Shown here one piece after another: positions 12,401 through 38,967 of a stretch of 64,000 bases of DNA. Under the pieces are notes generated by a model that saw only the letters and a program-made list of their open reading frames with translations, made no database searches and was not told where the DNA came from. The position numbers and the translations under genes are program-made. Within the stretch, counting starts at the first letter, position 1. Every line of letters starts with the position of its first letter. The stretch comes from Sneathiellales bacterium (GTDB lineage Bacteria; Pseudomonadota; Alphaproteobacteria; JANQFL01). Where the stretch lies: assembly GCA_028277845.1 (NCBI GenBank), contig JANQFL010000040.1, positions 1 to 64,000 on the forward strand, written 5' to 3'.

Positions 12401-13096
12401 TCAGTTGCCCTGGCTCCACCAGCGTTGGAAGCTCTTGTCGGATTCCGACAGGGCACTCACCTTGAGGGTATCGAGATAGTCCAGTACCTCCTGGCCCGGC
12501 ACCACGTCGGCGTATTTGGCGTCCATGTCGAACAGGTTGGCCTCGTGCGGGCCTTGCGCCCGGTCGCCGACGCCGTCCCGCACGACGATGGTGTTGTAGC
12601 CGTATTGCAGCGAATCGACCGCGGACGCGCGAACGCAGCCGCTGGTGGTGCAGCCGGTGATCACCACCGTATCGACACCCTGGGTCTTCAGATAGGTGTC
12701 CAGGTTAGTGCCGAAAAACGAACTCGCGTACTTTTTCGAAACGATGTAGTCGACGCTGCGCGGCGGGATCCGTTCATCGATCAAACACATATCCGATCCG
12801 CGGACCAATACGGCCAGCGACGGCACTTTTTTGATGAACACCCCGGCGTCGCGGAAATCCGGTTCGTATTCGATCGTGGTGAAGGCGACCGGCAATGCGT
12901 GATCATGAAACGCGTCCAGCAATTGCCGTGTGACCGCCAGTTCGGCGCTGAAATCGCCGCCCAGCGGCGACGACGGATCGGTGAATCCCTGAATGAAATC
13001 AACGATGAGCAGGGCCGGCCGCTCGCCGTATCCGGAGCGTTCGGCAAAGCCCTTGCTTTGATAACTCGCCAACGTGTCTTTTTGCCAATCGTTCAT
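12401..13096 (-). CDS. Isochorismatase-family cysteine hydrolase (N-carbamoylsarcosine amidase / biuret hydrolase-like)
   Basis: 231 aa. LLIVDFIQGF...VITGCTTSGCVRASAVD (catalytic Cys in GCxxxxCV context). Strong RBS GGGAGGA upstream. Confidence 0.75.
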   Translation of the reverse strand: MNDWQKDTLASYQSKGFAERSGYGERPALLIVDFIQGFTDPSSPLGGDFSAELAVTRQLLDAFHDHALPVAFTTIEYEPDFRDAGVFIKKVPSLAVLVRGSDMCLIDERIPPRSVDYIVSKKYASSFFGTNLDTYLKTQGVDTVVITGCTTSGCVRASAVDSLQYGYNTIVVRDGVGDRAQGPHEANLFDMDAKYADVVPGQEVLDYLDTLKVSALSESDKSFQRWWSQGN

Positions 13097-13285
13097 GGCG
13101 TGTCCTCCCGTGACCGGTGCATCTGATGGCGAACCTGACAGTAAGTATAGGCCGTGGGACGGATTCGTAAAATGCCGCGTGCCCCGTTGCCATGATCCCG
13201 ACTCGCGTGCAGACTAATGTGCAAAGCAACGACAACGCCGGAACAAGGCCAATCCCGGCGCCAAGAAAACAGGGAGGGTTCAGTC

Positions 13286-14344
13286 ATGAGCAGCGGTTCC
13301 CGTTATGGCCGTGCGCCCTACGGATCGGGCCAGGCACGCAATGTCACCGGCCCCCGGTACCAGCCCCGGCCATTGCTGTCGCCGTCACCGGCCGCCGCAT
13401 CGGTCGCGTCCCGCTCTCGCAGCACGGCCGGCGGCAAGAAGGAAATCCTGTGCGCCTTCGGCATCGACGTCGATGCCGTCGCCGGCTGGCTCGGATCTTA
13501 TGGCGGCGAGGATTCGCCCTGTGATATTTCCCGTGGCCTGTTCGCCGGCGAGGTCGGCACGCCGCGCCTGGTCGATCTGTTCGATCGGTTTCAGATTCCG
13601 ACCACCTGGTTCATCCCAGGCCACTCCATCGAAACCTTCCCGGAGCAAACCAGGATGGTGGTCGATGCCGGCCACGAGATCGGCATGCACGGCTATTCCC
13701 ACGAAAACCCCATCGCCATGACGCCCGAACAGGAAGAGGCGGTGCTGGACAAGTGCATCGACCTGATCGAGCGGGTTTCCGGCCGCAGCCCGACCGGTTA
13801 CGTGGCGCCGTGGTGGGAATTCAGCCCGGTGACCAACGAGCTTTTGCTCAGCAAGGGCATCAAGTACGACCACAGCCTGATGAACGACGACTTCCATCCG
13901 TTCTATGTCCGGGTCGGCGACAGCTGGACGCCGATCGATTACTCCAAACATCCGGACGAATGGATGAAACCGCTGGTGCGCGGCGTGGAAACCGACCTGA
14001 TCGACATTCCCGGCAGTTGGTATCTCGACGACCTGCCGCCGATGATGTTTATCAAGAGCGCGCCCAATTCCTTCGGCTTCGTCAATCCCCACGACATCGA
14101 GGAACTGTGGCGCGACCAGTTCGACTGGGTTTACCGGGAATACGACTACGCCGTCTTCACCATGACCATCCACCCCGACGTATCGGGCCGGCCGCAGGTC
14201 TTGTTGATGCTGGAACGGGTGTTCGAACATATCTCGAGCCACGCCGGCGTGCGCTTCTGCACCTTCGATGAAATCGCCGACGATTTCGCCCGCCGGCATC
14301 CGCGTGACAAGACGGCGCAGGGCGGCGCCGAGGCGGCGGACTAG
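13286..14344 (+). CDS. Polysaccharide deacetylase (NodB-homology) family hydrolase with a roughly 55-aa disordered N-terminal extension
   Basis: NodB motifs CAFGIDVDA and [12 protein letters not shown]-terminus [47 protein letters not shown] is low complexity. RBS AGGGAGG. Confidence 0.65.
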
Positions 14345-14348
14345 GCCC

Positions 14349-14669
14349 ATGTGCGGCTTGTGCGGCGTGCTCGGCGGACGCGGGCACTGGACCGAAACTT
14401 CGACCAACCCGGACGCCTTCGCCAGCCGCACCGCCGCTCATACCACCGGGCGTGAACGCCAGGCGCGCACCGTTCTGGTCAATCGGGTGCTGAAACACTA
14501 CGGCCTCGGTCTCAAGGACTGGTCGGGCAGTTCCTATGTCCTGCGCAGCAGCACCGGCAAGACCGCGCTGGTCGACAATCTGACCCAGATGTGGGCCCAG
14601 GCCGAGTCGCTGACCGGTCGCGACTGCGACCCGCTGGACGACGCGTTGCTCGCGGCGTTGCGGCGCTAG
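14349..14669 (+). CDS. Hypothetical small protein (106 aa) starting MCGLCGV...
   Basis: ATG 5 nt after the deacetylase stop. Ends 12 nt before the COG0523 gene. GC3-rich codon usage. No recognisable family. Confidence 0.35.
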   Translation: MCGLCGVLGGRGHWTETSTNPDAFASRTAAHTTGRERQARTVLVNRVLKHYGLGLKDWSGSSYVLRSSTGKTALVDNLTQMWAQAESLTGRDCDPLDDALLAALRR

Positions 14670-14681
14670 AAAGGCCCCGCC

Positions 14682-15728
14682 GTGGATTACGCCGGTCTCA
14701 TTCCTGTCAATGTCGTGACAGGCTTTCTCGGCAGCGGCAAGACGACGTTGTTGCGCCGGCTTCTGGCGGCGCCGTCGCTCAGCGACACCGCCGTCCTGGT
14801 CAACGAGTTCGGCGAGGTCGGTCTCGATCATCATCTGCTGCAGAACGTCACCGAAAGCGCCCTGTTGCTGGACAATGGCTGCGTCTGCTGCGCCATCCGC
14901 GGCGATTTGCAGGATTCGTTGCGGCAGCTGTTTTCCCAGCGCGACCGCGGCGAGGTGCCGCCGTTCCGGCGCGTGGTCATCGAAACCTCGGGCCTGGCCG
15001 ATCCGGTGCCGATCGCCTACACCGTGCTGTCCGAGCCGGTGCTGCAGCATCACTTTCGCCTGGGCGCCGTCGTTACCACGGTCGACGCCGTCAACGGCGC
15101 CGGGCAACTGGCGCGCTTCGAGGAATCGGTCAAACAGGTCGCCGTGGCCGACCGCATCGTCGTGACCAAGGCCGACCTCGCCGATGCGGAAACCGTCGCC
15201 GCGTTACGCCGGGCCATCCGGCGCCTCAACGGTGCCGCGCCGATCATCGATAGCGGCGACGGCGGCTGGTCGCCCGAGCAACTGATCGTTGACGATATCT
15301 ACGATGCCGACGGCAAGGCGCGGGAGGTGGGCCACTGGCTCGCTGCGCAGGGCGAGGGGGCGGGTGCTGAGCATGGCCATACCGACGGTGTCTCGTCCTT
15401 CGCCGTCGTCTTCGATCGACCGCTGGACTGGACCGCTTTCGGCGTCTGGATGACCATGCTGCTCAACCGGCACGGCGATAAGGTGTTGCGAATCAAGGGT
15501 TTGCTCAATGTCTCCGGGATCGCCGAACCGGTGCTGATCAACGGCGTGCAGCACATCGTGCATCCGCCCGTGCACATGGACGGCTGGCCCGACGGCGACA
15601 GGCGCAGCCGCATCGTCTTCATTGTCCGCGGGCTCGAGCAGGCACGCATCGAGGCGTCGCTGAATGTCTTCAACGACATGGTCAATTCGTCTGCGGAAGA
15701 GACGAGCGGGCTAATCCGAGCCGGATGA
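14682..15728 (+). CDS. COG0523 (CobW/HypB/UreG-type) G3E-family GTPase, putative metallochaperone
   Basis: P-loop GFLGSGKTTLL, diagnostic GCVCCA (CxCC) motif, C-terminal CobW-C-like domain. Confidence 0.8.
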   Translation: MDYAGLIPVNVVTGFLGSGKTTLLRRLLAAPSLSDTAVLVNEFGEVGLDHHLLQNVTESALLLDNGCVCCAIRGDLQDSLRQLFSQRDRGEVPPFRRVVIETSGLADPVPIAYTVLSEPVLQHHFRLGAVVTTVDAVNGAGQLARFEESVKQVAVADRIVVTKADLADAETVAALRRAIRRLNGAAPIIDSGDGGWSPEQLIVDDIYDADGKAREVGHWLAAQGEGAGAEHGHTDGVSSFAVVFDRPLDWTAFGVWMTMLLNRHGDKVLRIKGLLNVSGIAEPVLINGVQHIVHPPVHMDGWPDGDRRSRIVFIVRGLEQARIEASLNVFNDMVNSSAEETSGLIRAG

Positions 15729-16241
15729 GCCGGGGCTGACGCGGGGCGGCGGGCGGCGGGTCTGCCAGCCGTCGCGGAAGGCGCGCACCACGTGGTGCAG
15801 CAGGTAAAACAGCACCGCCAGGATGATCAGCAGCACGATGGCGAGCAGCTTTTCGCCGAACCCCGAGCCGATCATCGCCTCTTGGCCCATCAGGTGCAGG
15901 GCCAGCATGGCGACGGCCTGCAGCGTCGCGCCGGCGCAGAAAATAACGGCGATCAGGATCGATATCTGCAATGTATCGAACACCAGGGCGCCGACGTCCA
16001 GGTCCTTGACATGGCGGATCAGGTTGCGCCGGAAGGATTGCCAGTGGGACACCGCGTAGGCCAGCACCCCGACCACCGAGGCGAACCAGAAAATCACATT
16101 GGTGAAGTGGATATTGGGGATGCTGCCGACCAGGAATTTCTCGAACGGGGCGTAAAAATACAGGAAAATCAAAAAGATAATGATTGCGATCAGGATGATC
16201 CAGAATCGCGGCCGCCGCCCGGTGGTGGTTTCTTCTGCCAT
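15711..16241 (-). CDS. Small integral membrane protein (about 4 TM), uncharacterised family; paralog of 29807..30289
   Basis: 176 aa. LIFLYFYAPFE...IFW...HW...ATLQAV..L motif block shared with the second copy. Divergent from hyuA-1. Confidence 0.55.
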   Translation of the reverse strand: MAEETTTGRRPRFWIILIAIIIFLIFLYFYAPFEKFLVGSIPNIHFTNVIFWFASVVGVLAYAVSHWQSFRRNLIRHVKDLDVGALVFDTLQISILIAVIFCAGATLQAVAMLALHLMGQEAMIGSGFGEKLLAIVLLIILAVLFYLLHHVVRAFRDGWQTRRPPPRVSPGSSGSD

Positions 16242-16501
16242 GGCCGAAACACTCGCCTCGCGTTGCCAGGGCTGCTCTGCCGTCAGCCTGCGAAAAAGGA
16301 TGGTAGCTTAATTCCTTGCGCTGTCAAATCGCTGACGGCTCGAGCGGCGCGCGATGCAACGGCTGGTGCAGCGCATTTCGAACAACCCGTTCAAGTTTGT
16401 TGACCGGGCCCCCCGCATGGAGAATCATGTAAGGGTCCAAACGAATAAACCGGCCGAACCGACGACAAGTTTGGACACCGGCCGCGTACCGGGGAGGAAG
16501 A

Positions 16502-18571
16502 ATGTCAGGCCGTCTCGGCATTGACGTCGGAGGCACGTTTACGGACCTCCTGTTGTTCGACGGCAGCACGGGCGCCATGCACCTGCTGAAGACGCCGTCC
16601 ACGTCCGACGACCAGTCCATCGGCATTCACACCGGCATTCGCGACATGGTACGCCGGTCCGGCATCGCGCCCGGACAGATCGATGCGGTGCTGCACGGCA
16701 CCACCGTGCCGACCAACATCGTGCTCGAGGAAAAGGGCGCTAAGGTCGGCCTGCTGGTGACGGAAAACTTCGAGCAGGTGCTGCATCTCGCCCGCTCGCA
16801 GACGCCGGGGCCGCTGGCCGGCTGGATCATCATGGAAAAGCCGGATCCGCTGGCCGATCTGGAATTCACCCGCGGCGTGCGCGAGCGCATGTCGGCCCAC
16901 GGCGACGTCATCACCCCGCTCGACGAGACCAGCGTCACGGCCGCGATCCGCGACCTGCTCGATGCCGGCGTCGAATCGATCACCGTGTCGCTGCTGCATT
17001 CCTACGCCAATCCCGATCACGAGCGCCGCATCAAGGCGATGATCGTCGACATGGATGCCGACATCCCGGTGTCGCTGTCGTCCGACCTGCTGCCCGAGTT
17101 CCGCGAATACGAGCGCACGTTGGTCACCGTGATGAACGCCTATGTGCGCCCCAGCATGCGCCGCTATCTGACCGGCTTCGAGGACAAGCTGAAATCCCTC
17201 GAGGTGACGCCGCACGTCAACATCGTGCGCTCCGACGGCGGGCTGATGAGCGTGCCCAGGGCGTCCGATTCGCCGGTCCACACCATGCTGTCGGGGCCGG
17301 CCGGCGGCGTGTCGGGCGCGGCCTATCTGGCCGGCCTGGCCGGTTATCCCGACGCGCTCGGTTTCGACATGGGCGGCACGTCCACCGACGTCTCGCTGAT
17401 CCAGGACGGCAAACCGACCATTTCGCGCCAGACATCGCTCGGCTACTACCCGATCAAGGTGCCCTCGGTCGAAGTGCACAGCGTCGGCGCCGGCGGCGGC
17501 TCCGTCGCCCACGTGCCGATGACCGGCGCGCTCAGGGTCGGGCCGGAAAGCGCCGGTGCCATGCCGGGCCCGGCCTGCTACGGCCATGGCGGCACGGCGC
17601 CCACGGTGACCGACGCCAACGTGGTGCTCGGCCGCCTGCCGCCGCAGCTTTTGGGCGGCGATATGGTCCTCGACACGGCGGCGGCGGAGGAGGTGATCAC
17701 CACACTCGGCCGCAAGATCGGCCTCGACATGCACGCCGCCGCGGAAGGCATTCTCGACATCGTCAACGAAAACATGTTCGGCGCCCTGCGCCTGGTGTCG
17801 GTGCAGAAGGGATTGGACCCGCGCGACTTCGCCCTCGTCGCCTTCGGCGGCGCCGGGCCGCTGCACGCCAACGCCATGGCGATGCTGGCCGGCTGCTACC
17901 CGGTCATCGTGCCGCCCACGCCCGGCGTGCTGTCGGCGCTGGGCTTCCTCTATTCCGACATCAAGAACGAGTTTGCCCGCACCTTCGCCCGCACCCTCGA
18001 CGAAGCCACGCCCGAGCAGGTCGGTGGCATCCTCGAGGATTTGCGGCGCGACGCGCGCGCCTGGTTGGCCGAGGAAGGCCTGGCCGAGGACCGTCAGACG
18101 CTCGGCTTCCAGGCCGACGTGCGCTATTTCCGCCAGGGCTACGAGCTGTCGCTCGACATCGACCCGGCGGCCATGCGCAACGGCGGCATGGCGGATCTGG
18201 CCGCCCGCTTCGGCGCCGCCCACGAACAGCTTTACGGCTTCAAGCTCGACCAGCCCGTGGAACTGGTCAATCTGCGTGCGGTCGGCAGCGGCCGGGTCGA
18301 CAAGCAGGCGGTGCCGCGCTTCGAGCCGGAGGGCGCCGACGCCGCGACGGCCAAGGCCGGCCAGCACCAGGTCTATTTCAACGGCGCCTTCGTCAATACG
18401 GCGGTGTACGACCGGGCCAAGCTGCGGGCCGGCAACCGTCTCGTCGGCCCCGCCATCGTCACACAGACCGACACCACCACGGTCATCCATCCCGGCCATG
18501 TCGGCGAGGTCGACGCCTATCTGAATATCCTCATCCATCGCGAGGGCGAAGCCCTGGCGGAGCGGCGCTGA
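16502..18571 (+). CDS. hyuA: Hydantoinase/oxoprolinase family A subunit (HyuA / N-methylhydantoinase A-like)
   Basis: LGIDVGGTFTDLLLF start and full-length hydantoinase_A domain architecture. 689 aa. RBS GGGGAGGAAG. Confidence 0.85.
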   Translation: MSGRLGIDVGGTFTDLLLFDGSTGAMHLLKTPSTSDDQSIGIHTGIRDMVRRSGIAPGQIDAVLHGTTVPTNIVLEEKGAKVGLLVTENFEQVLHLARSQTPGPLAGWIIMEKPDPLADLEFTRGVRERMSAHGDVITPLDETSVTAAIRDLLDAGVESITVSLLHSYANPDHERRIKAMIVDMDADIPVSLSSDLLPEFREYERTLVTVMNAYVRPSMRRYLTGFEDKLKSLEVTPHVNIVRSDGGLMSVPRASDSPVHTMLSGPAGGVSGAAYLAGLAGYPDALGFDMGGTSTDVSLIQDGKPTISRQTSLGYYPIKVPSVEVHSVGAGGGSVAHVPMTGALRVGPESAGAMPGPACYGHGGTAPTVTDANVVLGRLPPQLLGGDMVLDTAAAEEVITTLGRKIGLDMHAAAEGILDIVNENMFGALRLVSVQKGLDPRDFALVAFGGAGPLHANAMAMLAGCYPVIVPPTPGVLSALGFLYSDIKNEFARTFARTLDEATPEQVGGILEDLRRDARAWLAEEGLAEDRQTLGFQADVRYFRQGYELSLDIDPAAMRNGGMADLAARFGAAHEQLYGFKLDQPVELVNLRAVGSGRVDKQAVPRFEPEGADAATAKAGQHQVYFNGAFVNTAVYDRAKLRAGNRLVGPAIVTQTDTTTVIHPGHVGEVDAYLNILIHREGEALAERR

Positions 18572-18573
18572 CC

Positions 18574-20868
18574 ATGTCGGAGACCACGACCAGAAAACCG
18601 CTGTCGCTCGACGACCTGCTGGCCGCCAATAAGGACCAGTTCGATCAGCTGTTCTCCCGGCAGATGACCCAGAAACCGCCGCCGGTAGTGCCGGTCAGGG
18701 AAGCGGTGCCCGAGCCCGCCGCCGTGACCGAGCCGTCCGAACCTGCGCCGGCGGAACCGGATGAAGCCGATCACGGCGTCGGCAACGTCAACGCCCACCT
18801 CAACCGGCTCTTCAGCATCGACTGGTCGTCCGAAGTTCTCGAACGCGCCATCGCCGACGACCGCGTGACCGTGCGCTGCCGGCTGACCGTCAGGGACGAG
18901 ACCATTGAAGTAGAAGGCTCGGCGCCCAATCGCGGCGATGCCGACGCGGCCCTGCAACGCGCGGTCGACGATGCGCTGCTGCGCGGCGCCGCGCGTGTGC
19001 TCGGCGAGGAACCGCCCGCCCGGCCCAAGAAGCCCTCGGAGCGCTGGAAGGAACGCGACGCGCCACCGCCGCCGGTGCGCCGTGTCGTCGACGAGCAAGA
19101 GCGGGCCGGCCTCGACATCGTCACCCTGGATCTGATCGAGAACGCGCTGCGCAACGCCCGCCACGAAATGGATGCGGTCTTGTTCCGGTCCGCCATGTCG
19201 CCGGTGATCCGCGAGCAGCACGACGAATTCCCCATGATCACCGATGCCGAGGGGCGTATGATCGTCGGCCAGTTCGGCTCGTACATCTCGGAAATGCTGC
19301 GCCAGCGGGACTTCGACCTGCGGCCGGGCGACGTCATTTTGCAGAGCGATCCCTACAAGTGCGGCGGCGCCATCAGCCACATCAACGACTGGATGGTGCT
19401 GGTGCCGGTGTTTCACCGCGGCGACCTGGTCGGTTTTACCTCCATGTTCGGCCACATGATGGACGTGGGCGGGCCGGTGCCCGGCAGCATGCCGACGGCG
19501 GCGACGTCGATCTTCGGCGAGGGCATGCGCATCCCGCCGATCAAGATCTACGAGGCCGGCCAGCTCAACCAGGGCGCTCTCGACCTGCTCATGAACAACA
19601 CCCGCACGCCGGAGATGAACTACTCCGATCTGATGGCGATCATCGCCGGCTGCAAGGCCGGCGAGAAGCGGGTGATCGAAATCTGCGAACGTTTCGGCGC
19701 GGCTTTGTACCGCCAGGCCTGCGCGGCCCTGCTCGAGCGCACCAACACCGCCATGCGCCAGCTCATCGTCCAGAACCTGCCCGAGGAACCGCAATCCTTC
19801 GAGGATTTCGTCGACGACGACGGCTGCGGCAACGGCCCGTTCGTCATGAAGCTGACCGTGTGGCGCGAAGGCGATCATGCCTATTTCGACTGGACCGGTA
19901 CCTCGGCCCAGGCGCCGGGGCCGGTCAACTTCTACCTGCACGAAGGCATGTTCAAGATGTTCATCGGCGTCTACATGATCATGGTCTTCGATCCCCAGAT
20001 CCTGTTCAACGACGGCTTCTACGACCTGATCCACGTCAACATGCCGAAGGGTTCGTTGATCCATCCGGAGTTTCCCGCCGCACTGGGCTGCCGCACCCAT
20101 GCGCTGGCCCGGCAATTCGACGTACTGGGCGGCGCGCTCGGCCGTCACACGCCGGAAACGGCGACCGCCGCCGGCTACGGCTCCAGCCCCTATTTCCTGT
20201 TTTCCGGCACCGACGAGGCCGGCCGGCCGTTTCAGTTGATGGAAATCCTCTACGGCGGCATTCCCGGCCGGCCCATCGGCGACGGCATGGACGGCCATTC
20301 CTGGTGGCCGCTGTTCGAGAACATTCCGACCGAGTACCTGGAAAGCTTCTATCCCATGGTGATCGAAAGCTATGCCAGCCTGGCCGATACCGGCGGCGCC
20401 GGCAAACACCGCGGCGGCAATGGGATCGAGAAGGTCTACCGGCTGCTGGAGGACGGTATGGTGTCGATCCACGACGACCGCCACCGCACCCAGCCATGGG
20501 GCATTCTCGGCGGCCAGCCCGGCGCCTGTTCGCGGAAATGGCTGCAACGCCGGGACGGCGAGCGCGAAGAGCTGCCTTCGAAGATCGACGGTATCCGGGT
20601 GCGCAAGGGTGATCGCATCGTTTTCCGCACCGCCGGCGGCGGCGGATGGGGCGACCCGTTGGAACGGGATGCCGGCCGCGTACGCAACGATGTCGCCCGG
20701 CGGCTGATGTCGATCGAGAAAGCGCGCGACGACTACGGCGTCGTGCTGATGGCCGATGGCCTGCAACTCGATGTTCGCGCCACGCGCGATTTACGCGCTA
20801 ATATGAAACACAGCAGAAGACCGCTGGAGTTGTTCGAGTACGGTGACCGGCCGGCTACGGCCACGTGA
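18574..20868 (+). CDS. hyuB: Hydantoinase/oxoprolinase family B subunit (HyuB-like) with a roughly 170-aa N-terminal extension
   Basis: Hydantoinase_B core begins near residue 175 (DIVTLDLIENALRNARHEMDAVLF...). ATG 2 nt after the hyuA stop. Extension has GC3-rich coding signal, Pro/Glu-rich. Confidence 0.8.
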   Translation: MSETTTRKPLSLDDLLAANKDQFDQLFSRQMTQKPPPVVPVREAVPEPAAVTEPSEPAPAEPDEADHGVGNVNAHLNRLFSIDWSSEVLERAIADDRVTVRCRLTVRDETIEVEGSAPNRGDADAALQRAVDDALLRGAARVLGEEPPARPKKPSERWKERDAPPPPVRRVVDEQERAGLDIVTLDLIENALRNARHEMDAVLFRSAMSPVIREQHDEFPMITDAEGRMIVGQFGSYISEMLRQRDFDLRPGDVILQSDPYKCGGAISHINDWMVLVPVFHRGDLVGFTSMFGHMMDVGGPVPGSMPTAATSIFGEGMRIPPIKIYEAGQLNQGALDLLMNNTRTPEMNYSDLMAIIAGCKAGEKRVIEICERFGAALYRQACAALLERTNTAMRQLIVQNLPEEPQSFEDFVDDDGCGNGPFVMKLTVWREGDHAYFDWTGTSAQAPGPVNFYLHEGMFKMFIGVYMIMVFDPQILFNDGFYDLIHVNMPKGSLIHPEFPAALGCRTHALARQFDVLGGALGRHTPETATAAGYGSSPYFLFSGTDEAGRPFQLMEILYGGIPGRPIGDGMDGHSWWPLFENIPTEYLESFYPMVIESYASLADTGGAGKHRGGNGIEKVYRLLEDGMVSIHDDRHRTQPWGILGGQPGACSRKWLQRRDGEREELPSKIDGIRVRKGDRIVFRTAGGGGWGDPLERDAGRVRNDVARRLMSIEKARDDYGVVLMADGLQLDVRATRDLRANMKHSRRPLELFEYGDRPATAT

Positions 20869-20945
20869 TGAGTGAAGACCAAGATCCCTGAACGTTCGGG
20901 ATCGTCAGAAACAGGGACGAACGACACAACACGGGTGTTTGGACA

Positions 20946-25744: not shown

Positions 25745-25745
25745 C

Positions 25746-29794: not shown

Positions 29795-29806
29795 GGCGGA
29801 AAGACC

Positions 29807-30289: not shown

Positions 30290-30374
30290 CTCTGCGTCCC
30301 TCGTCGTTGTTGCAAGCCGGTTCCCTGTTCCGGCACGGAGACTTCGAGACAAAGTCTATCCTAGCCGCCAGCCG

Positions 30375-31811
30375 TCAGGCAACCGGCGGCGTTTTCGGTA
30401 AGTCCCCGGGCGTTTGCGTGTGCCATGAGGTTGCGGTTTCGTAGGCCGCCGCCGCTGCCAGCAGTTCCGGCTCCTCGAACCAGCGGCCGATCAACTGCAG
30501 TCCGACGGGCAGGCCTTCGCCGGTCAGTCCGCACGGCACACTGATGGCCGGCTGTCCGGTGAACGATGCCAACCGGCATGGCCGGCCCAGAACGGCGGCG
30601 GCATCGATGTCTTCTCCGTTCTGACGGTAACAGCCGGTGTCGATCAACGGCGCCGGTCCGGACGCCGTCGGTACGGCCAGGACATCGACCGACGTCATGA
30701 CGTCGGCCATGGCCTGCTTGATATCCGCCTGACGGCATTGCGCCAGTTGGTAATCGGCGGCGGCAATGTCCTTGCCCTGCAACAGCCGTGCCTCGACTTC
30801 GGGTCCCATGACGCCCGGATGCTCGGCCACCCGGTCGGCATGCACGGCATAGGCTTCGGATAGGGCCATCACCGTCCAGCTTTCCAGCGCGTCGTCGGCG
30901 AACGGGAGGGCGATGGGGCGCACCTCCGCGCCCAGCCCGGCGAGTTCATCGATGGCGGTGCGGATGGCGGCTTCGATATCGGGGTGCGGGCCGTCGAAAA
31001 AGAAATTGTCCGGCACGCCGATGATGCGGCCGCGCAGGCCGTCGCCGATGTGCTCGCTATAGTCTCGCACGCGGACGCCGTGCGTGGTCGGATCCGCGCC
31101 GTCTTCTCCGGCGATCGCCTGCAGCACCAGTGCCGCGTCCCGCACGGTCCGGGCCAGCGGGCCGCCGTGATCGAAACTGTCGCACAACGGGAAGATTCCC
31201 CGGCGGCTGACCAGGCCGTAGCTCTGCTTCAATCCGACCACGCCGCACAGCGCCGCCGGAATGCGGATCGAGCCGCCGGTGTCCGTGCCCAGTGCCGCCG
31301 GCACCAGCGACGCCGCGACGGCGCACCCGGACCCGGCGCTGGAGCCGCCGCAGCCGCGTTCCCGGTCCCACGGATTGCGGGCCGAGCCGAAATGCGGATT
31401 GATGCCCGTCGGGCCGTAGGCGAATTCGTTGAGGTTGAGCAATCCGACGACGATGGCGCCGGCGTCCTTCAATTTGCCGACGGTCGCGGCGTCCTGCGGG
31501 TCGGCCTCCTCGGTGAACAGTTTCGAACCGCAGGTGCGGCGCATGCCGGCGACGGCATAGAGGTCCTTCACCGCCACCGGCACGCCGTGCAACGGGCTCC
31601 GCCGGCGCCCGGCCCGGATCTCCGTCTCCGCCACACGGGCGGCGGCCAGGGCCTGGTCGGGATAGACCGAGAGGAAGGCGTTGAGGACCGGGTTCAGCGC
31701 CTCGATGCGGTCGAGCGTCGCCCGCATCACCTCGACCGGCGAGACCGCGTCGGTGTCCAGAAGGTCACTCAGTTCGGCAATGGTCAGGCGGGCGAGATCC
31801 GTCCCGCTCAC
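30375..31811 (-). CDS. Amidase-signature (AS) family amidase
   Basis: GGSSAGSGCAVAASLVPAALGTDTGGSIRIPAA signature. GTG start at 31811 overlaps the TGA of the upstream membrane-protein gene (GTGA). The 798-aa track ORF is a 5' read-through. Confidence 0.8.
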   Translation of the reverse strand: MSGTDLARLTIAELSDLLDTDAVSPVEVMRATLDRIEALNPVLNAFLSVYPDQALAAARVAETEIRAGRRRSPLHGVPVAVKDLYAVAGMRRTCGSKLFTEEADPQDAATVGKLKDAGAIVVGLLNLNEFAYGPTGINPHFGSARNPWDRERGCGGSSAGSGCAVAASLVPAALGTDTGGSIRIPAALCGVVGLKQSYGLVSRRGIFPLCDSFDHGGPLARTVRDAALVLQAIAGEDGADPTTHGVRVRDYSEHIGDGLRGRIIGVPDNFFFDGPHPDIEAAIRTAIDELAGLGAEVRPIALPFADDALESWTVMALSEAYAVHADRVAEHPGVMGPEVEARLLQGKDIAAADYQLAQCRQADIKQAMADVMTSVDVLAVPTASGPAPLIDTGCYRQNGEDIDAAAVLGRPCRLASFTGQPAISVPCGLTGEGLPVGLQLIGRWFEEPELLAAAAAYETATSWHTQTPGDLPKTPPVA

Positions 31812-32923
31812 GCCGCCGCCTCGGGGATCGCCGCGATCAGCAGGATGCCGTAGATGATGAGGAACAGGACATCCTTGGCCAGGGGGATGCCCTGGCTTTG
31901 CGATTCGCGGGTGATGATCAGGCTGATGACTTCGAGCACGAAAAAGACGACGGCGAGGCCGAAGAAGGGCCAGATGGTGCTCCACCAGGAAATAGCGGCC
32001 GGTACCTCGACGCCCTGCACCGTGCGCCAGATCAGCAGCAGGATGGGCAGGGCGATCAGGTAGGCGTAGGCGATCAGGAAGCGCAGCCGCGTCAGCTTGC
32101 GGTCGATAATCCAGAACAGCAACAGAAACGCGGTGACGTGGATGAAATCCCAGAACAGGGCCGCATAGGTGTCGCCGCCGCCCGACTGCAGCAGGTTGAG
32201 GTAGCCGATGACGTAGAGAAACACCAGCGCGTCGCAGAACAGCCACTCGCGCAGGCTCTCGCCCGGCGTTTTCACGTTCCAGGTGCGTGAGGCCTTGTCG
32301 AACAGCATGACCAGGGCGACGATCAGGCCCGCCGGGTAGATCAGGTTGCTGATCAGCACGTATTGCTGGGCGTTGGGCACGTACGACCAGTTGAGGATGA
32401 GAAAGGCCAGTCCGAGGCCGAGCAGGCCGATCAGCCGCACCGCCGACGGCGATTCGTAGCGCGCCACCGGGGCGGTTTCCGTCGGTTCCGCGGTTTCGGC
32501 CGGCGCCTCCTCGGCGATGGCGGCGGTCGTTGCGGCCGCCGCGGCGGCCAGGTCCCGGTTCAGCCGCGCCTGGCGCCAGAAGACGGTCAGCAGGAACACC
32601 AGCAGCCCGGCGGCGGCGATCAGGCCCATGACGATGATGAAGGTCAGCGAGCGGCCGTCGGTCTGCCATTCGGCCGGGGCGAGGCCGGGCAGCGTGCCCG
32701 GCGGGAACTGCCAGAACAGCAGCACGACGGCGATGACGATCACCGCGCCGGCCAGCAGGAACGCGTACCACTGGGGCGCGTATCCGTCCGCCGCCTGGCC
32801 GTCCGTCCCGGCCGCTTGCGGCCGCCGGGCGTAGCGCGAGATGAGGAAAATCAGGAACGACAGCACGCCGATCACGGCGATGGCGATCATGACTTCGAGA
32901 AAGGCGACGGATCGATTGTCCAA
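31808..32923 (-). CDS. Polytopic integral membrane protein of unknown function (371 aa), translationally coupled to the amidase
   Basis: About 9-10 hydrophobic segments. N-terminal LSFLIFLISRYARRP resembles the LIFLYFY segment of the small membrane paralogs. Ala/Thr/Glu-rich loop in the middle. Confidence 0.55.
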   Translation of the reverse strand: MDNRSVAFLEVMIAIAVIGVLSFLIFLISRYARRPQAAGTDGQAADGYAPQWYAFLLAGAVIVIAVVLLFWQFPPGTLPGLAPAEWQTDGRSLTFIIVMGLIAAAGLLVFLLTVFWRQARLNRDLAAAAAATTAAIAEEAPAETAEPTETAPVARYESPSAVRLIGLLGLGLAFLILNWSYVPNAQQYVLISNLIYPAGLIVALVMLFDKASRTWNVKTPGESLREWLFCDALVFLYVIGYLNLLQSGGGDTYAALFWDFIHVTAFLLLFWIIDRKLTRLRFLIAYAYLIALPILLLIWRTVQGVEVPAAISWWSTIWPFFGLAVVFFVLEVISLIITRESQSQGIPLAKDVLFLIIYGILLIAAIPEAAA

Positions 32924-33133: not shown

Positions 33134-33790
33134 GTGAGTGATCCGTCGGCTTCTGTTTACCAGGAACGCACCTATGGCGCGCACCAGATCGGCTACGGCC
33201 AGCGGCCCGGCATCATCGTCGTCGATTTCCAGAACGGTTTCACCGACCCGCAGTACCCGCTGGGCGGCGCGCCGCTGATCCGGCGCGCGGTCGACAACAC
33301 GGCCCGGCTGCTCGAAGTCGGCCGCCGCTGCAACGTGCCCGTCGCGACCTGCTACACCGCCTACAACTCGAAGAAGGACATGCCCTACTGGAAGGTGGCG
33401 GCGGTGATGGAAGACCTGGTCGAAGGCCATCCGTCGACCGAACTGGATCCCCGGCTCTACGATCCCGATTACGATGTCGCCATGCGCAAGAGCGGCGCGT
33501 CGATCTTCTTCCAGACCCCGGCGACGGCCTATCTCAACAAGGAAAACGTCGACACCGTCATCGTCACCGGCTGCGTCACCTCGGGCTGCGTCCGCGCCTC
33601 CATCGTCGACAGTTTCCAATGGGGCTTCCGCACCATCGTGCCCGAGGACTGCGTCGGCGACCAGGACGACCGGCCGCACCAGGACAATCTGCGCGACGTC
33701 AACCGCCGCTATGCCGACGTCACGGATTCGGCGGAAGTGATCGCGTGGATCGAATCCCTGCGCGGCCGCAATGCGCCGGAAGACGGCTAG
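33134..33790 (+). CDS. Isochorismatase-family cysteine hydrolase, second copy (N-carbamoylsarcosine amidase-like)
   Basis: GIIVVDFQNGF...VIVTGCVTSGCVRASIVD. GTG 33134 after GGGAGGAGG. Ends 6 nt before hyuA-2. Confidence 0.75.
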   Translation: MSDPSASVYQERTYGAHQIGYGQRPGIIVVDFQNGFTDPQYPLGGAPLIRRAVDNTARLLEVGRRCNVPVATCYTAYNSKKDMPYWKVAAVMEDLVEGHPSTELDPRLYDPDYDVAMRKSGASIFFQTPATAYLNKENVDTVIVTGCVTSGCVRASIVDSFQWGFRTIVPEDCVGDQDDRPHQDNLRDVNRRYADVTDSAEVIAWIESLRGRNAPEDG

Positions 33791-33796
33791 GCCGCC

Positions 33797-36250
<2,454 letters not shown>

Positions 36251-36265
36251 GGAAAGGCTGACACT

Positions 36266-38179
36266 ATGCCTGCCAACGTCGTGCAAACCAACAACCGGCC
36301 CTTCAGCAAGGTCGATATCGATCCCATCACCCTCGACATCATCGAGAACGCCCTGCGCAATGCCCGCAGCGAAATGGATGCGGTGCTGTTCCGCACCGCC
36401 ATGTCGCCCGGCATTCGCGAACAGCACGATGCCTTCCCCATGATCGCCAACCCCGAAGGCAAGATGGTGGTCGGCCAGTTCGGCTCGTTTTTCTGGGGCT
36501 TCCAGCAGGGTTATGACGGCGACATCGAGGAAGGCGACGTCTTCCTGACCAACGACCCCTATGTCTGCAACGGCGCCATCAGCCATCTCAACGACTGGCT
36601 GACCATGATGCCGATCTACATCGACGGCCGCCTGGTCGCCTGGGCCGCCATGTTCGGCCACATGACGGATATCGGCGGCAAGGTGCCGGGCAGCCTGCCG
36701 ACCGACGCCGCCCAGGTGTTCGAGGAAGGGGTGCAGATCCCGCCGGTCAAGATCATCCGCAAGGGCAAGCTGAACGAGGAAATCCTCGAGCTGATCCTGC
36801 GCAATTGCCGGCTGCCGGAATGGAACCGCTCCGACTTCAACGCCATCGTCGCCGCCCTGCGCCTGGCCGAACGCCGGGTGCTGGAAATGGCCGACCGCTT
36901 CGGCGTCGACACGCTGGTCAGCGCCATGCAGGACATGCTCGACCGCAACAAGCGGGCCATGGGTGAGATCCTCAAGATGGTGGTGCCGGAAACCAAGCAG
37001 TATTTCGAGGACTATATCGACGACGACGGCATGGGCATGGGCCCCTACAAGATCGCCTGTACCCTGTGGCGCGAGGGCGACGGCGTCATCTTCGATTTCG
37101 AAGGCACCGATCCGCAATCGATCAGTTCGGTGAATTTCCTGCTCAACGAGGAAATGTTCAAGATGTTCCTCGGCGCCTTCTTCATCAACCTGTTCGATCC
37201 GCAGATCCTGTTCAACGACGGCTTCTATGACCTGGTGGAGGTGCGCATTCCGCGCGGCACCATACTCAAACCGATCCGTCCGGCGGCGTTGAGCAGCCGC
37301 ACCCATCTGCTCGCCCGCATTTTCGACATCATGAGCGGCCTCTTGGGCCAGGGTTCGCCCGAGGCGCTGTGCGCCGCCGGCTTTTCCGACAGTCCCCACT
37401 TCATGTATTCGGGCTACGACAAGAACGGCGAGTGGTATCAGCTCTACCAGATCGGCTTCGGCGGCATCCCCGGCCGGCCCGCCGGCGACGGCCCCGACGG
37501 CCATTCCCTGTGGCCCGCCTTCACCAACGTACCCAACGAATTCCTCGAGGCCTATTTCCCGCTGCGCATCGTCAAGTATGAGACCATCGCCGATTCCGGC
37601 GGGCCCGGCCTGCACCGCGGCGGCAACGGCCTGTCCATGGGCTATCAGTTCCTCGAGCCGGGTGAAATTTCCATCCACGACGACCGCTGGCTGACCCACC
37701 CCTGGGGCGTCAACGGCGGCCTGCCCGGCGCGCGCAGCCACAAGCTCATGGTCCGGGCCGACGGCAGCGAGGAATGGATGCAGTCCAAGTGCGACCGGAT
37801 CAAGGTCGCTGCCGGCGATACGCTCTATTTCAACACCTGGGGGGGTGGCGGCTGGGGCGATCCGCTCGAGCGTGACGCGGCCAAGGTGGCGCTCGATGCC
37901 GAACGGGGCATCGTCACCGTTGAAGGCGCCAAGCGCTACGGCGTGGTGCTGGGATCCGATTTCTCGGTGGACCGGCGGGCAACGGAAGACCTGCGGCGCA
38001 GGATCGCGTCGGAACGCGGCACGACCGAGTTGTTCAACCGCGGCGGCACCGTTGAGGAATTGAAGGCGCGCTGCAAGGCCGACACCCATCTCGATCCCCC
38101 GACCACGCCGGTGTTCCAGAAATGGATGGGCCGGCGCGAGGACGGCGGGCGCGGCGAGTTGGCCGACGCCGCGGAATAG
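36266..38179 (+). CDS. hyuB: Hydantoinase/oxoprolinase family B subunit (HyuB-like)
   Basis: IDPITLDIIENALRNARSEMDAVLFRTAMSP start, full hydantoinase_B length (637 aa). RBS GAGGAAAGG. Confidence 0.85.
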   Translation: MPANVVQTNNRPFSKVDIDPITLDIIENALRNARSEMDAVLFRTAMSPGIREQHDAFPMIANPEGKMVVGQFGSFFWGFQQGYDGDIEEGDVFLTNDPYVCNGAISHLNDWLTMMPIYIDGRLVAWAAMFGHMTDIGGKVPGSLPTDAAQVFEEGVQIPPVKIIRKGKLNEEILELILRNCRLPEWNRSDFNAIVAALRLAERRVLEMADRFGVDTLVSAMQDMLDRNKRAMGEILKMVVPETKQYFEDYIDDDGMGMGPYKIACTLWREGDGVIFDFEGTDPQSISSVNFLLNEEMFKMFLGAFFINLFDPQILFNDGFYDLVEVRIPRGTILKPIRPAALSSRTHLLARIFDIMSGLLGQGSPEALCAAGFSDSPHFMYSGYDKNGEWYQLYQIGFGGIPGRPAGDGPDGHSLWPAFTNVPNEFLEAYFPLRIVKYETIADSGGPGLHRGGNGLSMGYQFLEPGEISIHDDRWLTHPWGVNGGLPGARSHKLMVRADGSEEWMQSKCDRIKVAAGDTLYFNTWGGGGWGDPLERDAAKVALDAERGIVTVEGAKRYGVVLGSDFSVDRRATEDLRRRIASERGTTELFNRGGTVEELKARCKADTHLDPPTTPVFQKWMGRREDGGRGELADAAE

Positions 38180-38187
38180 GAGAAAGT

Positions 38188-38967
38188 ATGCGCAGTTTCG
38201 GCGACGCCCATGTCGAGATGCTGGATCATGTGGCCGTCGTCGAAATCCGGCGGCCGCCGCACAATTATTTCGATCCGGCGCTGATCGGCGGGCTGGTCGA
38301 CGCGTTCCGGGCATTGCAGGATGACGTGTCCTGCCGGGCCATCGTTCTGGCGGCACAGGGCAAATCGTTTTGTGCCGGAGCCGATTTCAGCGGCAGCCTC
38401 GACCTGTTTGACGAAAACTCCGCGTACACCGGCAAGGATCTCTATCACCACGCGGCCCAATTGTTCGGCTGTTCAAAGCCGGTGGTCGGCGCGGTCCAGG
38501 GCAACGCCATCGGCGGCGGATTGGGCCTGGCCCTGGTGCCGGACTTTCGCGTCGTCAGCCCGGAGACGCGGTTCTCCGCCAACTTCGTCAAACTGGGCAT
38601 CCATCCCGGCTTCGGCCTGACCCACACACTGCCGCGTTTGATCGGCGGGCAAAAGGCCGCTCTGATGTTTCAAACCGGCCGGCGGATCGGAGGCGAACAG
38701 GCGGTGGCGTGGGGTCTCGCCGACATCCTGACCGGCGGGGACCGGCTAAGGGAGACGGCGCTGGAATTGGCCAACGAGATTGCGGAAAACGCGCCGTTGG
38801 CGGTTCAGTCCACCCGCGAAACGCTCAGGATCGGCCTGGTCGAAGCGGTAAAGAAACAAACCGAACGCGAATTCAGCGAACAGAGCCGGCTGGTCAAAAC
38901 CGAGGACCACCAGGAAGGCGTCCGGGCGGTCGCCGAGCGCCGGCCGGGGAATTTCGCCGCCCGTTGA
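38188..38967 (+). CDS. Enoyl-CoA hydratase/isomerase (crotonase) family protein
   Basis: FCAGADFSG oxyanion-hole motif. Start ATG 38188 after AGGAGAAAG. 259 aa. Confidence 0.8.
   Translation: MRSFGDAHVEMLDHVAVVEIRRPPHNYFDPALIGGLVDAFRALQDDVSCRAIVLAAQGKSFCAGADFSGSLDLFDENSAYTGKDLYHHAAQLFGCSKPVVGAVQGNAIGGGLGLALVPDFRVVSPETRFSANFVKLGIHPGFGLTHTLPRLIGGQKAALMFQTGRRIGGEQAVAWGLADILTGGDRLRETALELANEIAENAPLAVQSTRETLRIGLVEAVKKQTEREFSEQSRLVKTEDHQEGVRAVAERRPGNFAAR

Follow-up and report, generated by a model that had tools for sequence, protein, structure and literature searches.

A conserved gene cluster of uncultured proteobacteria that combines genes of ATP-dependent hydantoinase-family enzymes with that of a flotillin-like membrane protein

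Introduction

In creatinine catabolism, a two-subunit ATP-dependent ring opener, N-methylhydantoin amidohydrolase (HyuAB, EC 3.5.2.14), is paired with a cysteine hydrolase of the isochorismatase family, N-carbamoylsarcosine amidase (CSHase, EC 3.5.1.59). The same pairing is found twice in the stretch of DNA analyzed here, the first 64,000 nucleotides of contig JANQFL010000040.1 from a Sneathiellales bacterium (GCA_028277845.1; hereafter the window), where two modules of isochorismatase-like hydrolase (iso), hyuA, and hyuB lie in one gene island together with the gene of an unusually long protein of the SPFH (flotillin) type. We propose that this island encodes a membrane-organized catabolic system for one or more small cyclic amides of the imide or hydantoin type in uncultured Alpha- and Gammaproteobacteria; we give the whole chain of steps an even chance of being right and have more confidence in the generic first three, namely import, ring opening, and deamidation.

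Two further described systems are instructive. The caprolactamase CapAB and other ATP-dependent lactamases have the same Pfam architecture and ATP motifs as the HyuAB pairs of the island. In caprolactamase, the lactim is phosphorylated in the A subunit and hydrolyzed in the B subunit, a mechanism that serves as our working model.[PMC8453981] The ASKHA ATP-binding motifs DxGGTxTD, DxGGT, and GxxPGP have been defined for this ATP-dependent hydantoinase family, in which characterized enzymes that act on different substrates share about 30% identity.[PMC8453981] The other system is the metabolism of cyclic imides as exemplified by NicF, in which an imidase and then a half-amidase act in sequence; D-hydantoinases, too, are known to hydrolyze glutarimides.

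The island differs from each of these systems. Compared with the creatinine pathway, it comprises neither an upstream deaminase nor a downstream sarcosine enzyme, its proteins reach only about 35–48% identity, and it is linked to a coenzyme A (CoA) transferase, an enzyme of the HMGL-like family (HMGL, 3-hydroxy-3-methylglutaryl-CoA (HMG-CoA) lyase), a dihydropyrimidinase, a hydrolase of the Helicobacter pylori HP0310 type, YrdC-like proteins, and an SPFH scaffold. CapAB lacks an N-terminal extension, a partner amidase, and a membrane scaffold, and the equivalog scores of the island proteins amount to about half of the cutoff or less. The logic of the imide pathway, from imide via half-amide to dicarboxylate, fits the link to CoA-transferase and lyase; the island, however, is devoid of pyridine-ring enzymes, the ATP-dependent HyuAB replaces or joins the simple imidase, and the downstream route would proceed via CoA esters, which the described imide pathway does not include. 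All island enzymes are from known families. What appears to be undescribed so far is their combination, the unit of HP0310-type hydrolase and COG0523 GTPase, the link to YrdC, and, above all, the SPFH scaffold with its helix–linker tags and a co-opted Rad52-like domain.

Results and Discussion

The Gene Order of the Island Is Conserved

Genes in the window (about 64% G+C) were called by the GC content of third codon positions (GC3), and 50 proteins across the 64 kb were scanned with Pfam and NCBIfam models. An alignment of the HyuB1 family was used to fetch 80 species-representative genome loci, all of them metagenome-assembled genomes (MAGs), and a scan with the HyuA2 family yielded 80 metagenome loci; the window proteins were compared with these loci (designated by L-numbers) by tblastn. 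The order of module 1 is kept in about 45 of the 80 genome loci, which belong to Alpha- and Gammaproteobacteria, all uncultured: iso1 (−) is followed by the genes of the HP0310-type hydrolase, a small protein, and the COG0523 GTPase (+), then by hyp176 (−), by hyuA, hyuB, the SPFH gene, and potA (+), by potC, potB, and the gene of a substrate-binding protein (−), by the dihydropyrimidinase gene (+), and by the membrane-protein genes hyp181 and hyp371 (−), after which the island ends with iso, hyuA, and hyuB of module 2 and a YrdC-like gene. Because the order is identical in so many genomes, this arrangement is far beyond chance juxtaposition. The locus closest to the window is L029; in the more distant Binatia, Acidobacteriota, Methylomirabilota, and Ktedonobacteraceae, hyuA-hyuB alone is kept, with or without iso. 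Module 2 (iso2-hyuA2-hyuB2) is likewise conserved among the metagenome loci, often bordered by hyp371, hyp181, the dihydropyrimidinase gene, and the transporter as in the window (L082, L086, L092, L093).

The starting point of our analysis was a sequence-only reading that had placed a cyclic-amide catabolic island at 12401–38967. All genes that it listed are present within at most a few codons of their proposed coordinates, and the spacers in iso2-hyuA2-hyuB2 are indeed 6 and 15 nucleotides long. Its view of the island as a coherent catabolic unit, with a substrate that the known families do not reveal, holds; its left boundary is too tight, as the functional unit probably starts at about 9033. 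It had overlooked the SPFH protein, three membrane proteins, the N-terminal extensions of HyuB1 and HyuA2, a 106-residue CxxC protein, a 70-residue mini-ORF (open reading frame), and three left-hand genes (9033–12160).

N-Terminally Extended HyuB Is Paired with an SPFH Protein

HyuB1 (18574..20868, +), the hydrolytic subunit of module 1, carries an N-terminal extension of 180 residues ahead of its Pfam domain (PF02538, from residue 181). The next gene, located between hyuB1 and potA, encodes a flotillin-like SPFH protein of 938 residues (20946..23762, +; PF01145 (Band_7), 52 bits at a cutoff of 23.6). This protein consists of one transmembrane segment (residues 1–19), the Band_7 domain, and a long coiled coil with 29-residue repeats rich in Glu, Lys, Arg, and Ala; by the positive-inside rule, its bulk is predicted to reside on the cytoplasmic side. 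Two arrays of the 87-nucleotide (29-residue) repeat occupy positions 21916-22110 and 22476-22717 of the window. Full-length homologues differ in length by steps of about 29 residues (879, 909, 938, 965, 994, and 1023), from which we conclude that the repeat copy number varies between species, as if it were setting a length.

In its N-terminal membrane anchor, SPFH domain, and coiled coil, the protein resembles the bacterial flotillins FloT and YqiK, and homologues are labeled YqiK by JGI. FloT and YqiK are about half as long, the NCBIfam model of FloT comprising 477 positions, and the island protein scores 34 bits against this equivalog (cutoff 700). Unlike these flotillins, it has repeats of variable copy number and no NfeD partner, and it is paired with an enzyme bearing a conserved N-terminal helix, so that a candidate client is defined. 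In the flotillin-associated rhodopsin cluster of marine bacteria, a flotillin gene and that of a small membrane protein are embedded among nitrogen-metabolism genes;[PMC10308929] we regard this as an analogous precedent only. Our literature search for a hydantoinase together with an SPFH protein or flotillin returned no report.

The extension of HyuB1 is conserved in 22 aligned homologues. A model built with AlphaFold2 (AF2) from the alignment predicts a helix (residues 12–32), a disordered segment, an α-β3-α domain (residues 70–142), and a disordered linker rich in Pro and Ala. The helix has the consensus SLDDLLxANKxQFDxLF. The domain (window 18781-18999) is modeled with a pLDDT of 93–97, and its best Foldseek matches are Mgm101/RAD52 proteins (E ≈ 5e-4), with folds similar to the dsRBD scoring comparably. 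The Pfam family Rad52_Rad22 (PF04098) is recognized in the homologue P0034 (26 bits, cutoff 20.3), the window copy having no Pfam match, and a profile of the extension also matches proteins with phage-type Rad52-like sequences. The HyuB versions of Gammaproteobacteria are without the Rad52-like domain and have kept helix, linker, and SPFH protein.

The helix and the SPFH gene co-occur strictly: the helix motif is found on HyuB in all 45 loci with an SPFH gene, as opposed to none of the 26 loci without one. A regular expression accounted for 40 of these loci, and the five misses with an SPFH gene were re-examined; in L033 and L037 the motif was recovered from split tblastn matches, and in L017, L049, and L050 its presence was deduced from tblastn matches that reach query residues 1–10. 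Similarity to the query within the HyuB core does not differ between the two groups of loci (65–70% identity). Moreover, the SPFH gene always directly follows an N-extended hyuB, and this includes distant SPFH variants (58–64% identity, 965–1023 residues), which are still located directly behind an N-extended HyuB and are accompanied by a hyp176 orthologue. The SPFH subfamily is found beside HyuAB in every context examined, down to members at 58% identity, and hyuA, hyuB, the SPFH gene, and potA share one strand with gaps of 38–77 nucleotides.

A related tag is present on the other subunit in module 2. HyuA2 (33797..36250, +) has an N-terminal extension of 136 residues, consisting of a helix (TDWFDSQLDDMKNEFDRL) and a linker rich in Pro and Ala, in front of its Pfam domains (from residue 138). 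Helix (TxWFDxQLxxLKxEFDxL) and linker recur in about 115 of 120 homologue clusters. Among metagenome loci whose flanks total 8 kb or more, genes of the hyp176, hyp181, hyp371, or SPFH type occurred in 11 of the 18 loci with a HyuA2 extension versus none of the 41 extension-less loci.

The tag also exists without an enzyme. Directly downstream of iso1, preceded by the Shine-Dalgarno sequence AGGAGA, lies a mini-ORF of 70 residues (12171..12383, −) with the helix motif (FDDLLADSKRQFDEL); the motif matches the N-terminus of HyuB1, a match that did not occur in any of 100 shuffles. The same position is occupied in 17 other loci by a stand-alone protein of about 160 residues that combines the helix with the Rad52-like domain, and the mini-ORF is a shortened version of these proteins. 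A profile search for the N-terminal module on other enzyme families yielded only the HyuB-fused and the stand-alone forms; the additional profile match P0464 is a repetitive protein that was hit by chance.

A short terminal amphipathic helix followed by a poorly conserved flexible linker is also the design of the cargo peptides of microcompartments and encapsulins, and the attachment of the island module to different subunits in two paralogous systems and its stand-alone form are in keeping with this resemblance. The island module differs from these peptides in that its presumed partner is a membrane SPFH protein and that its helix is acidic. Reading the tags as such cargo peptides was abandoned, as the 50 window proteins include no bacterial microcompartment (BMC), EutN, or encapsulin shell protein.

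In soil Alphaproteobacterial MAGs we also observed a third, distant HyuA/HyuB pair (31–37% identity), which is encoded on the strand of iso1 and of the stand-alone helix/Rad52-like protein and follows both; counted along the cluster, it is located upstream of iso1 (L008, L011, L013-L015, L017, L018, L020, L022-L024, L026, L028, L032, L033, L035, L039, L049, L050, L057). Clusters of these bacteria thus hold up to three HyuAB modules each.

Two Paralogous Modules for Predicted Ring Opening and Deamidation

The two modules, whose members share 41% (iso), 51% (HyuA), and 53% (HyuB) identity, go back to an ancient duplication; other genomes contain separate orthologues of either copy (70–88% identity). 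HyuA1 (16502..18571, +), the ATP-binding subunit of module 1, contains the domains Hydant_A_N, Hydantoinase_A, and Hydant_A_C as well as the ATP motifs DVGGTFTD, DMGGTS, and GAMPGP; in HyuA2, the motifs read DVGGTFTD, DMGGTS, and GAEPGP. HyuB2 (36266..38179, +) is without an extension (PF02538 from residue 19) and has orthologues at 84–92% identity. Both HyuA/HyuB pairs match the Pfam domains of the family with E-values of 1e-9 to 1e-150. The best PDB match of HyuA1 is the N-methylhydantoinase 7hk5 (462 bits), modestly ahead of the caprolactamase 6yra (376 bits); HyuB1 matches the same chain of 7hk5, a fused 'N-methylhydantoinase', with 253 bits and caprolactamase with 221 bits. As roughly estimated from the bit scores, HyuA and HyuB are about 35–40% identical to 7hk5. 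The caprolactamase models for CapA and CapB (NF050156/NF050157, cutoff 1000) are not reached by either the A subunits (532 and 530 bits) or the B subunits (246 and 217 bits).

The isochorismatase-like cysteine hydrolases iso1 (12401..13096, −; PF00857, 118 bits) and iso2 (33134..33790, +; PF00857, 110 bits) fall into the CSHase/NicF subfamily. The best PDB match of iso1 is the N-carbamoylsarcosine amidohydrolase 26st (204 bits, 48.5% identity), with NicF (4l07) at 41%; iso2 scores about 134 bits with NicF and 26st alike and is 40.6% identical to the latter. Both proteins share 38–41% identity with NicF. The similarity to the pair of N-methylhydantoinase and N-carbamoylsarcosine amidase that the sequence-only reading had pointed out is thus real. 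Deducing the substrate of iso1 or iso2 from overall identity was nevertheless given up, since 26st and the maleamate amidohydrolase 4l07 are themselves 45% identical to each other. The motifs VDF, KK/RK, and TSGCVR of iso1 and iso2 align with NicF and CSHase, and we take them to represent the Asp-Lys-Cys catalytic triad. The cutoffs for biuret hydrolase BiuH and RutB (370 and 378 bits) are missed by a wide margin by iso1 (45 and 44 bits) and iso2 (33 and 26 bits). The ORF of iso2 runs back to 33065, and a homologue in L036 favors a start at 33134; iso2 orthologues (63–79% identity) directly precede hyuA2.

Among all island proteins, only the dihydropyrimidinase passes an NCBIfam equivalog cutoff; the models for caprolactamase, BiuH, RutB, AtzE, and CobW/ZigA/YjiA all remain below theirs.

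In L164 and L165 (positions 2600-9700), which represent the lineage with the longest SPFH proteins, a gene of the OMP-decarboxylase family is inserted between hyuA and hyuB, and genes of an Amidohydro_2 protein (decarboxylase type) and a Zn-alcohol dehydrogenase lie upstream. This gene set hints at a carboxylated heterocycle as substrate in this lineage.

A Recurrent Link to CoA-Transferase and Lyase Genes

Three genes at the left-hand side would connect the modules to CoA metabolism. An alpha/beta hydrolase (9033..9956, +; Abhydrolase_1), whose homologues (57–63% identity) stand beside the CoA-transferase, iso, and hyuAB genes in 11 related loci, is followed by a SUGCT-like family III CoA-transferase (10009..11244, +; CoA_transf_3, 409 bits) and an HMG-CoA-lyase-like enzyme (11228..12160, +; HMGL-like), the start of which overlaps the stop of the CoA-transferase gene. 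In the PDB, the CoA-transferase scores highest with 4ed9, a CaiB/BaiF family protein that has no specific name (237 bits), and, among named structures, with succinate-hydroxymethylglutarate CoA-transferase (9br7, 219 bits); the lyase best matches the HMG-CoA lyases 1ydo and 2cw6 (200–217 bits). Applying strict thresholds (at least 45% identity for the CoA-transferase, at least 40% for the lyase, within 6 kb of hyuAB), we found an orthologue of one or the other in 31 of 162 loci and of both in 20 of 162, in varying gene orders and several phyla. L071 and L074 contain a single-strand operon CoAT-iso-HMGL-hyuA-hyuB (CoAT, CoA-transferase) with a gap of 3 nucleotides between CoAT and iso and gaps of 3 to about 400 nucleotides overall, the gene starts being uncertain, and L091 a single-strand operon abh-CoAT-HMGL-iso2-hyuA2-hyuB2 (abh, alpha/beta hydrolase). 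Acyl-CoA ligases, short-chain dehydrogenases, and proteins of the PEP-mutase/isocitrate-lyase family are further recurrent neighbors.

The recurrence of CoA-transferase and lyase with iso-hyuAB indicates that the product of ring opening and deamidation is a carboxylic acid, which is activated with CoA and then cleaved, rather than sarcosine or another amino acid. As the link is recurrent and not universal, our confidence in this conclusion is moderate.

Upstream of the island (158-8923), we noticed genes of a LIV-type ABC transporter, an acyl-CoA ligase, a thiolase-like protein, and a thiamine pyrophosphate (TPP) enzyme, which are possibly related to the CoA-dependent part of the pathway.

A Metallo-Hydrolase Unit of the HP0310 Type

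Between iso1 and hyp176, three genes form a unit of their own. The first encodes a Zn hydrolase with NodB fold and a low-complexity N-terminal extension (13217..14344, +; PF01522). It had previously been addressed as deacetylase-like; the gene is there, and its product is, more precisely, a close relative of HP0310 from H. pylori (3qbu/4ly4), with which it aligns over 291 residues without gaps (519 bits) at an identity that we estimate by eye at about three-quarters. Across the related loci, it is 72–90% identical and thus among the most conserved proteins of the cluster. The metal ligands of HP0310 are Asp, Asp, His, and His, complemented by a catalytic His.[PMC3084791] The motifs DxD, HxxxH, and IHPD (in the stretch TIHPDV) are kept in the island hydrolase and presumably hold these published ligands. 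The second gene encodes a 106-residue protein with an N-terminal CxxC (MCGLCG...; 14349..14669, +; GC3 0.85), which belongs to no Pfam family; homologues (45–69% identity) occupy the same position between hydrolase and GTPase in most module-1 loci (about 35 by tblastn), 21 of them in one ORF cluster. The third encodes a COG0523 GTPase, a putative metallochaperone (14682..15728, +; PF02492, 156 bits, and PF07683, 84 bits), which is below the equivalog cutoffs of the YjiA-like, CobW, and ZigA models and whose position after the HP0310-like gene is conserved. This succession of hydrolase, CxxC mini-protein, and COG0523 GTPase suggests that the HP0310-like enzyme may be a chaperone-loaded metallo-hydrolase that acts on a small cytoplasmic amide.

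The structure paper on HP0310 argues for a small-molecule substrate: the structure revealed a closed pocket of small-molecule size, the closest similarity is to the allantoinase PuuE, a signal peptide is missing, and the protein was inactive on GlcNAc oligomers, acetyl-polyamines, acetyl-dipeptides, and allantoin.[PMC3084791] In the same paper, HP0310 was connected with importers of the polyamine type through its genomic surroundings, which were compared with HP0312 serving as a second anchor gene.[PMC3084791] A later paper assigned esterase/deacetylase activities (peptidoglycan, acetyl-xylan) to HP0310. The island hydrolase thus resembles HP0310 ('PgdA') and its COG0523 neighborhood in sequence, metal-site motifs, and association with a polyamine-type importer; it differs in being encoded in a cytoplasmic catabolic cluster and in its additional low-complexity N-terminus, whereas HP0310 has been assigned deacetylase activities.

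Importer, Dihydropyrimidinase, and Further Genes

The importer resembles PotABCD. Its PotA-like ATPase (23801..24907, +; ABC_tran; PotA model 337 bits, below the cutoff of 482) is conserved in its position after the SPFH gene. The PotC-like (24917-25744, −) and PotB-like (25746-26726, −) permeases, both with BPD_transp_1 domains and below the cutoffs of the respective NCBIfam models, are 69–94% identical in related loci. The periplasmic binding protein (26859..28133, −; SBP_bac_8) has a twin-arginine signal (SRRQFV); an attempt to deduce the class of its ligand was dropped because it scores only about 30 bits with PotF/PotD structures. Next to it lies the gene of the dihydropyrimidinase/D-hydantoinase (28343..29794, +), a full-length match to TIGR02033 (591 bits, cutoff 393) with orthologues (78–90%) beside the binding-protein gene in L007, L009, L010, L029, L030, L046, L082, L086, and L093. 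Untagged HyuA2-type modules are linked to other importers (L116, L117, L129, L130, L159, L160, and two further ORF clusters), one of them a distantly related PotABCD-like set, the other, seen in about 15 marine loci, a sugar-type ABC ATPase together with a Peripla_BP_4 binding protein.

Three membrane proteins complete the conserved set. Hyp176 (15711..16241, −), a protein with four transmembrane segments (4-TM) as judged by its hydrophobic stretches, is encoded divergently from hyuA1; in about 45 loci, L164 among them, an orthologue (50–68% identity) lies on the upstream side of hyuA. Its 4-TM paralogue hyp181 (29807..30352, −; 35% identity to hyp176) is conserved together with the polytopic hyp371 (31808..32923, −; about 10 hydrophobic segments) beside iso2-hyuA2 in L009, L082, L086, L092, and L093, where the hyp371 homologues share 42–50% identity. 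Apart from Rad52_Rad22 in the one homologue mentioned above, neither the small and membrane proteins nor the extensions gave a significant Pfam match.

Not every gene within the boundaries belongs to the system. The amidase-signature amidase (30375..~31805, −; PF01425, 392 bits; AtzE model 353 bits, below the cutoff of 461) was dropped as a core member, having a positional orthologue only in L092 (51%), and is hence a variable component. The sequence-only reading had placed the enoyl-CoA hydratase (crotonase; 38188..38967, +; ECH_1, 183 bits) and the YrdC-like protein at the distal end of the island and had found that neither fits the creatinine pathway; for the YrdC-like protein, the comparison of loci reverses the view of it as a misfit. 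In none of about 160 other loci did tblastn detect the hydratase gene beside hyuB2, so that for want of conservation it was removed from the pathway. In contrast, genes similar to that of the YrdC/Sua5-like protein (38985..39722, −; PF01300; TIGR00057 37 bits, below the cutoff of 123) accompany hyuA2B2-type modules, in one or two copies, in at least 14 loci, standing next to hyuB2-type genes (L082, L092, L104, L106, L108, L110, L112, L115, L116, L119, L123, L152, L159, L162). Consequently, the YrdC-like protein is a conserved partner of the hyuA2B2 module, and the hydratase is probably outside the system. Divergent from the YrdC-like gene, an RpiR-type regulator (HTH_6 and SIS domains; 39998-40888, +) possibly controls module 2; tblastn detected no homologue of it in the related loci. 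Farther downstream (56053-63385, −), a second amidase-signature amidase forms an operon with an Opp/Dpp-type ABC transporter, which we regard as a separate amide-uptake unit.

Proposed Pathway and Its Alternatives

Joining these elements, we propose the following sequence of events. Judging by the protein families, the Tat-exported binding protein and the PotABC-like importer would bring the compound into the cell. Its ring would then be opened by the two paralogous HyuAB enzymes, with HyuA phosphorylating the lactim tautomer and HyuB hydrolyzing it as in caprolactamase; family membership suggests that the metal-dependent dihydropyrimidinase opens rings as well, and the HP0310-type Zn hydrolase, loaded by the COG0523 GTPase, probably acts as an additional ring opener. 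In the next step, iso1 and iso2, being of the CSHase/NicF type and conserved in the iso-hyuA-hyuB operon, would deamidate the resulting half-amide or N-carbamoyl acid. The recurrent synteny indicates that the SUGCT-like CoA-transferase would then activate the remaining carbon skeleton, most likely a C5–C6 dicarboxylate, for cleavage by the HMGL-like enzyme. Meanwhile, a platform of SPFH and 4-TM proteins at the inner membrane would keep HyuAB close to the importer, the tether being the acidic N-terminal helix with its long flexible linker, which module 1 has on HyuB1 and module 2 on HyuA2; we infer this physical tethering from the strict co-occurrence of tag and SPFH gene.

This sequence favors a substrate whose ring yields a dicarboxylic acid, for example a cyclic imide, with iso acting like maleamate amidohydrolase; the conversion of N-methylhydantoin to sarcosine fits the pattern of CoA-transferase and lyase less well. 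Substituted maleimides and related imides, such as the photo-oxidation products of tetrapyrroles, are a speculative substrate class that would be compatible with NicF-like hydrolases, with neighbors from the dialkylmalate-lyase family, and with the distribution in marine and soil habitats.

Three other assignments of the pathway have to be considered. The most obvious one is creatinine/N-methylhydantoin catabolism, with HyuAB as N-methylhydantoinases, iso1 and iso2 as N-carbamoylsarcosine amidases that release sarcosine, and the other genes as accessories: 7hk5 is the best PDB match of both HyuA1 and HyuB1, 26st that of iso1, the operon mirrors the known enzyme pairing, and JGI labels the HyuAB homologues N-methylhydantoinase A/B. 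We nevertheless consider it distinctly improbable. The Pfam scans bore out the earlier statement that no creatinine deaminase, sarcosine oxidase, or carbamoylase domain exists anywhere in the 64-kb window, which is equally free of a cytosine deaminase, a creatininase, and a sarcosine dehydrogenase, and neither the deaminases nor the sarcosine oxidase/dehydrogenase are found among the recurrent neighbors. Moreover, the 48.5% identity of iso1 to 26st leaves the substrate unfixed, given the similarity of 26st to NicF; iso2 scores both equally; the identity of HyuA and HyuB to 7hk5 lies near that between family members with different substrates; and the operon link to CoA-transferase and HMGL-like enzyme, which has no role in a sarcosine route, is itself an argument against catabolism of creatinine to sarcosine. 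A general salvage of hydantoins or dihydropyrimidines (ureides) to amino acids and ammonia, in which iso1 and iso2 would be decarbamoylases and the CoA-transferase and lyase unrelated neighbors, is somewhat easier to reconcile with the data, yet still unlikely. It would account for the dihydropyrimidinase, which passes its equivalog cutoff and is conserved beside the binding protein, for the second dihydropyrimidinase-like gene, the CN_hydrolase (a family that includes carbamoylases), and the luciferase-like monooxygenase in L082, for the OMP-decarboxylase-like and Amidohydro_2 genes in L164 and L165, and for the closeness of the HP0310 fold to the allantoinase PuuE. HP0310 is, however, inactive on allantoin, a dihydropyrimidine dehydrogenase was not seen in the 64-kb window, and tight CoAT-iso-HMGL-hyuA-hyuB operons in distant phyla are hard to call a coincidence. 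That HyuAB are 5-oxoprolinases or simple lactamases of the caprolactam/valerolactam type, the amino-acid product of which would need no amidase, seems to us hardly credible: the family does include such enzymes and caprolactamase alpha/beta are the best NCBIfam models (530 and 246 bits), but these scores fall well short of the equivalog cutoffs (1000), and a lactam product offers no amide to the invariably co-encoded isochorismatase-like hydrolase.

As for the membrane-associated part, we tentatively suggest that the giant SPFH protein and the 4-TM proteins form a flotillin-type platform or cage at the inner membrane, that the acidic helix and linker are a dedicated targeting signal which recruits the ring-opening enzymes beside the importer, that the 29-residue repeats set the size of the platform, and that the Rad52-like ring domain multimerizes the cargo; we regard this full proposal as less likely than not. 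It is also possible, though we do not favor it, that the extensions do not dock to the SPFH protein at all and instead mediate self-assembly, for example into Rad52-like rings, regulation, or other binding, with the SPFH and 4-TM proteins as a separate membrane-maintenance unit that travels along. Rad52/Mgm101 proteins, which the domain in the extension resembles, are a ring-forming family, the module exists in stand-alone copies, and L083 and L087 have a HyuA2-type helix and no membrane partner gene within 10 kb. Docking is, on the other hand, what the strict co-occurrence (45/45 versus 0/26) speaks for, together with the Gammaproteobacterial versions, which dropped the Rad52-like domain and kept helix, linker, and SPFH protein, the common strand and short gaps of hyuA, hyuB, the SPFH gene, and potA, and the position of the SPFH subfamily next to HyuAB in all contexts examined.

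Several points weigh against the cyclic-amide system on a membrane platform as we propose it. The best structural relative of HyuA1 is annotated as N-methylhydantoinase and that of iso1 as N-carbamoylsarcosine amidohydrolase, which fits a route from ureide to amino acid and not one to a dicarboxylate. The link to CoA-transferase and HMGL-like enzyme is restricted to about one fifth of the loci; the majority of module-1 loci either lack these genes or have them at a distance of more than 6 kb, and, with family III CoA-transferases being frequent in these genomes, some of the adjacency may be incidental. The association of tag and SPFH protein may stem from one or a few ancestral events, may be shared by the Alpha- and Gammaproteobacterial clades through transfer, and is silent on which protein binds the helix. 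The two HyuA2-type loci with a helix and no membrane partner gene within 10 kb are a further point. Finally, our search of the literature found no description of this cluster and no experiment on any of its members.

Conclusion

When metagenomes from marine, sponge, and soil habitats are annotated, HyuAB/isochorismatase genes of this kind are routinely assigned to the catabolism of creatinine or N-methylhydantoin. Their conserved context suggests another class of substrates, the product of which enters CoA-dependent cleavage, and such annotations may therefore mislead inferences on the nitrogen cycle. Moreover, the presence of an HP0310 relative inside a cytoplasmic catabolic cluster puts the accepted function of HP0310 as a 'peptidoglycan deacetylase' back in question. 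To our knowledge, bacterial flotillins have so far been without clear, genetically linked clients. An SPFH subfamily that is always encoded behind one tagged enzyme constitutes a testable pair of client and scaffold and, if the proposed recruitment is true, would provide the first case of a bacterial flotillin whose metabolic client is defined genetically and carries a recognizable targeting peptide.

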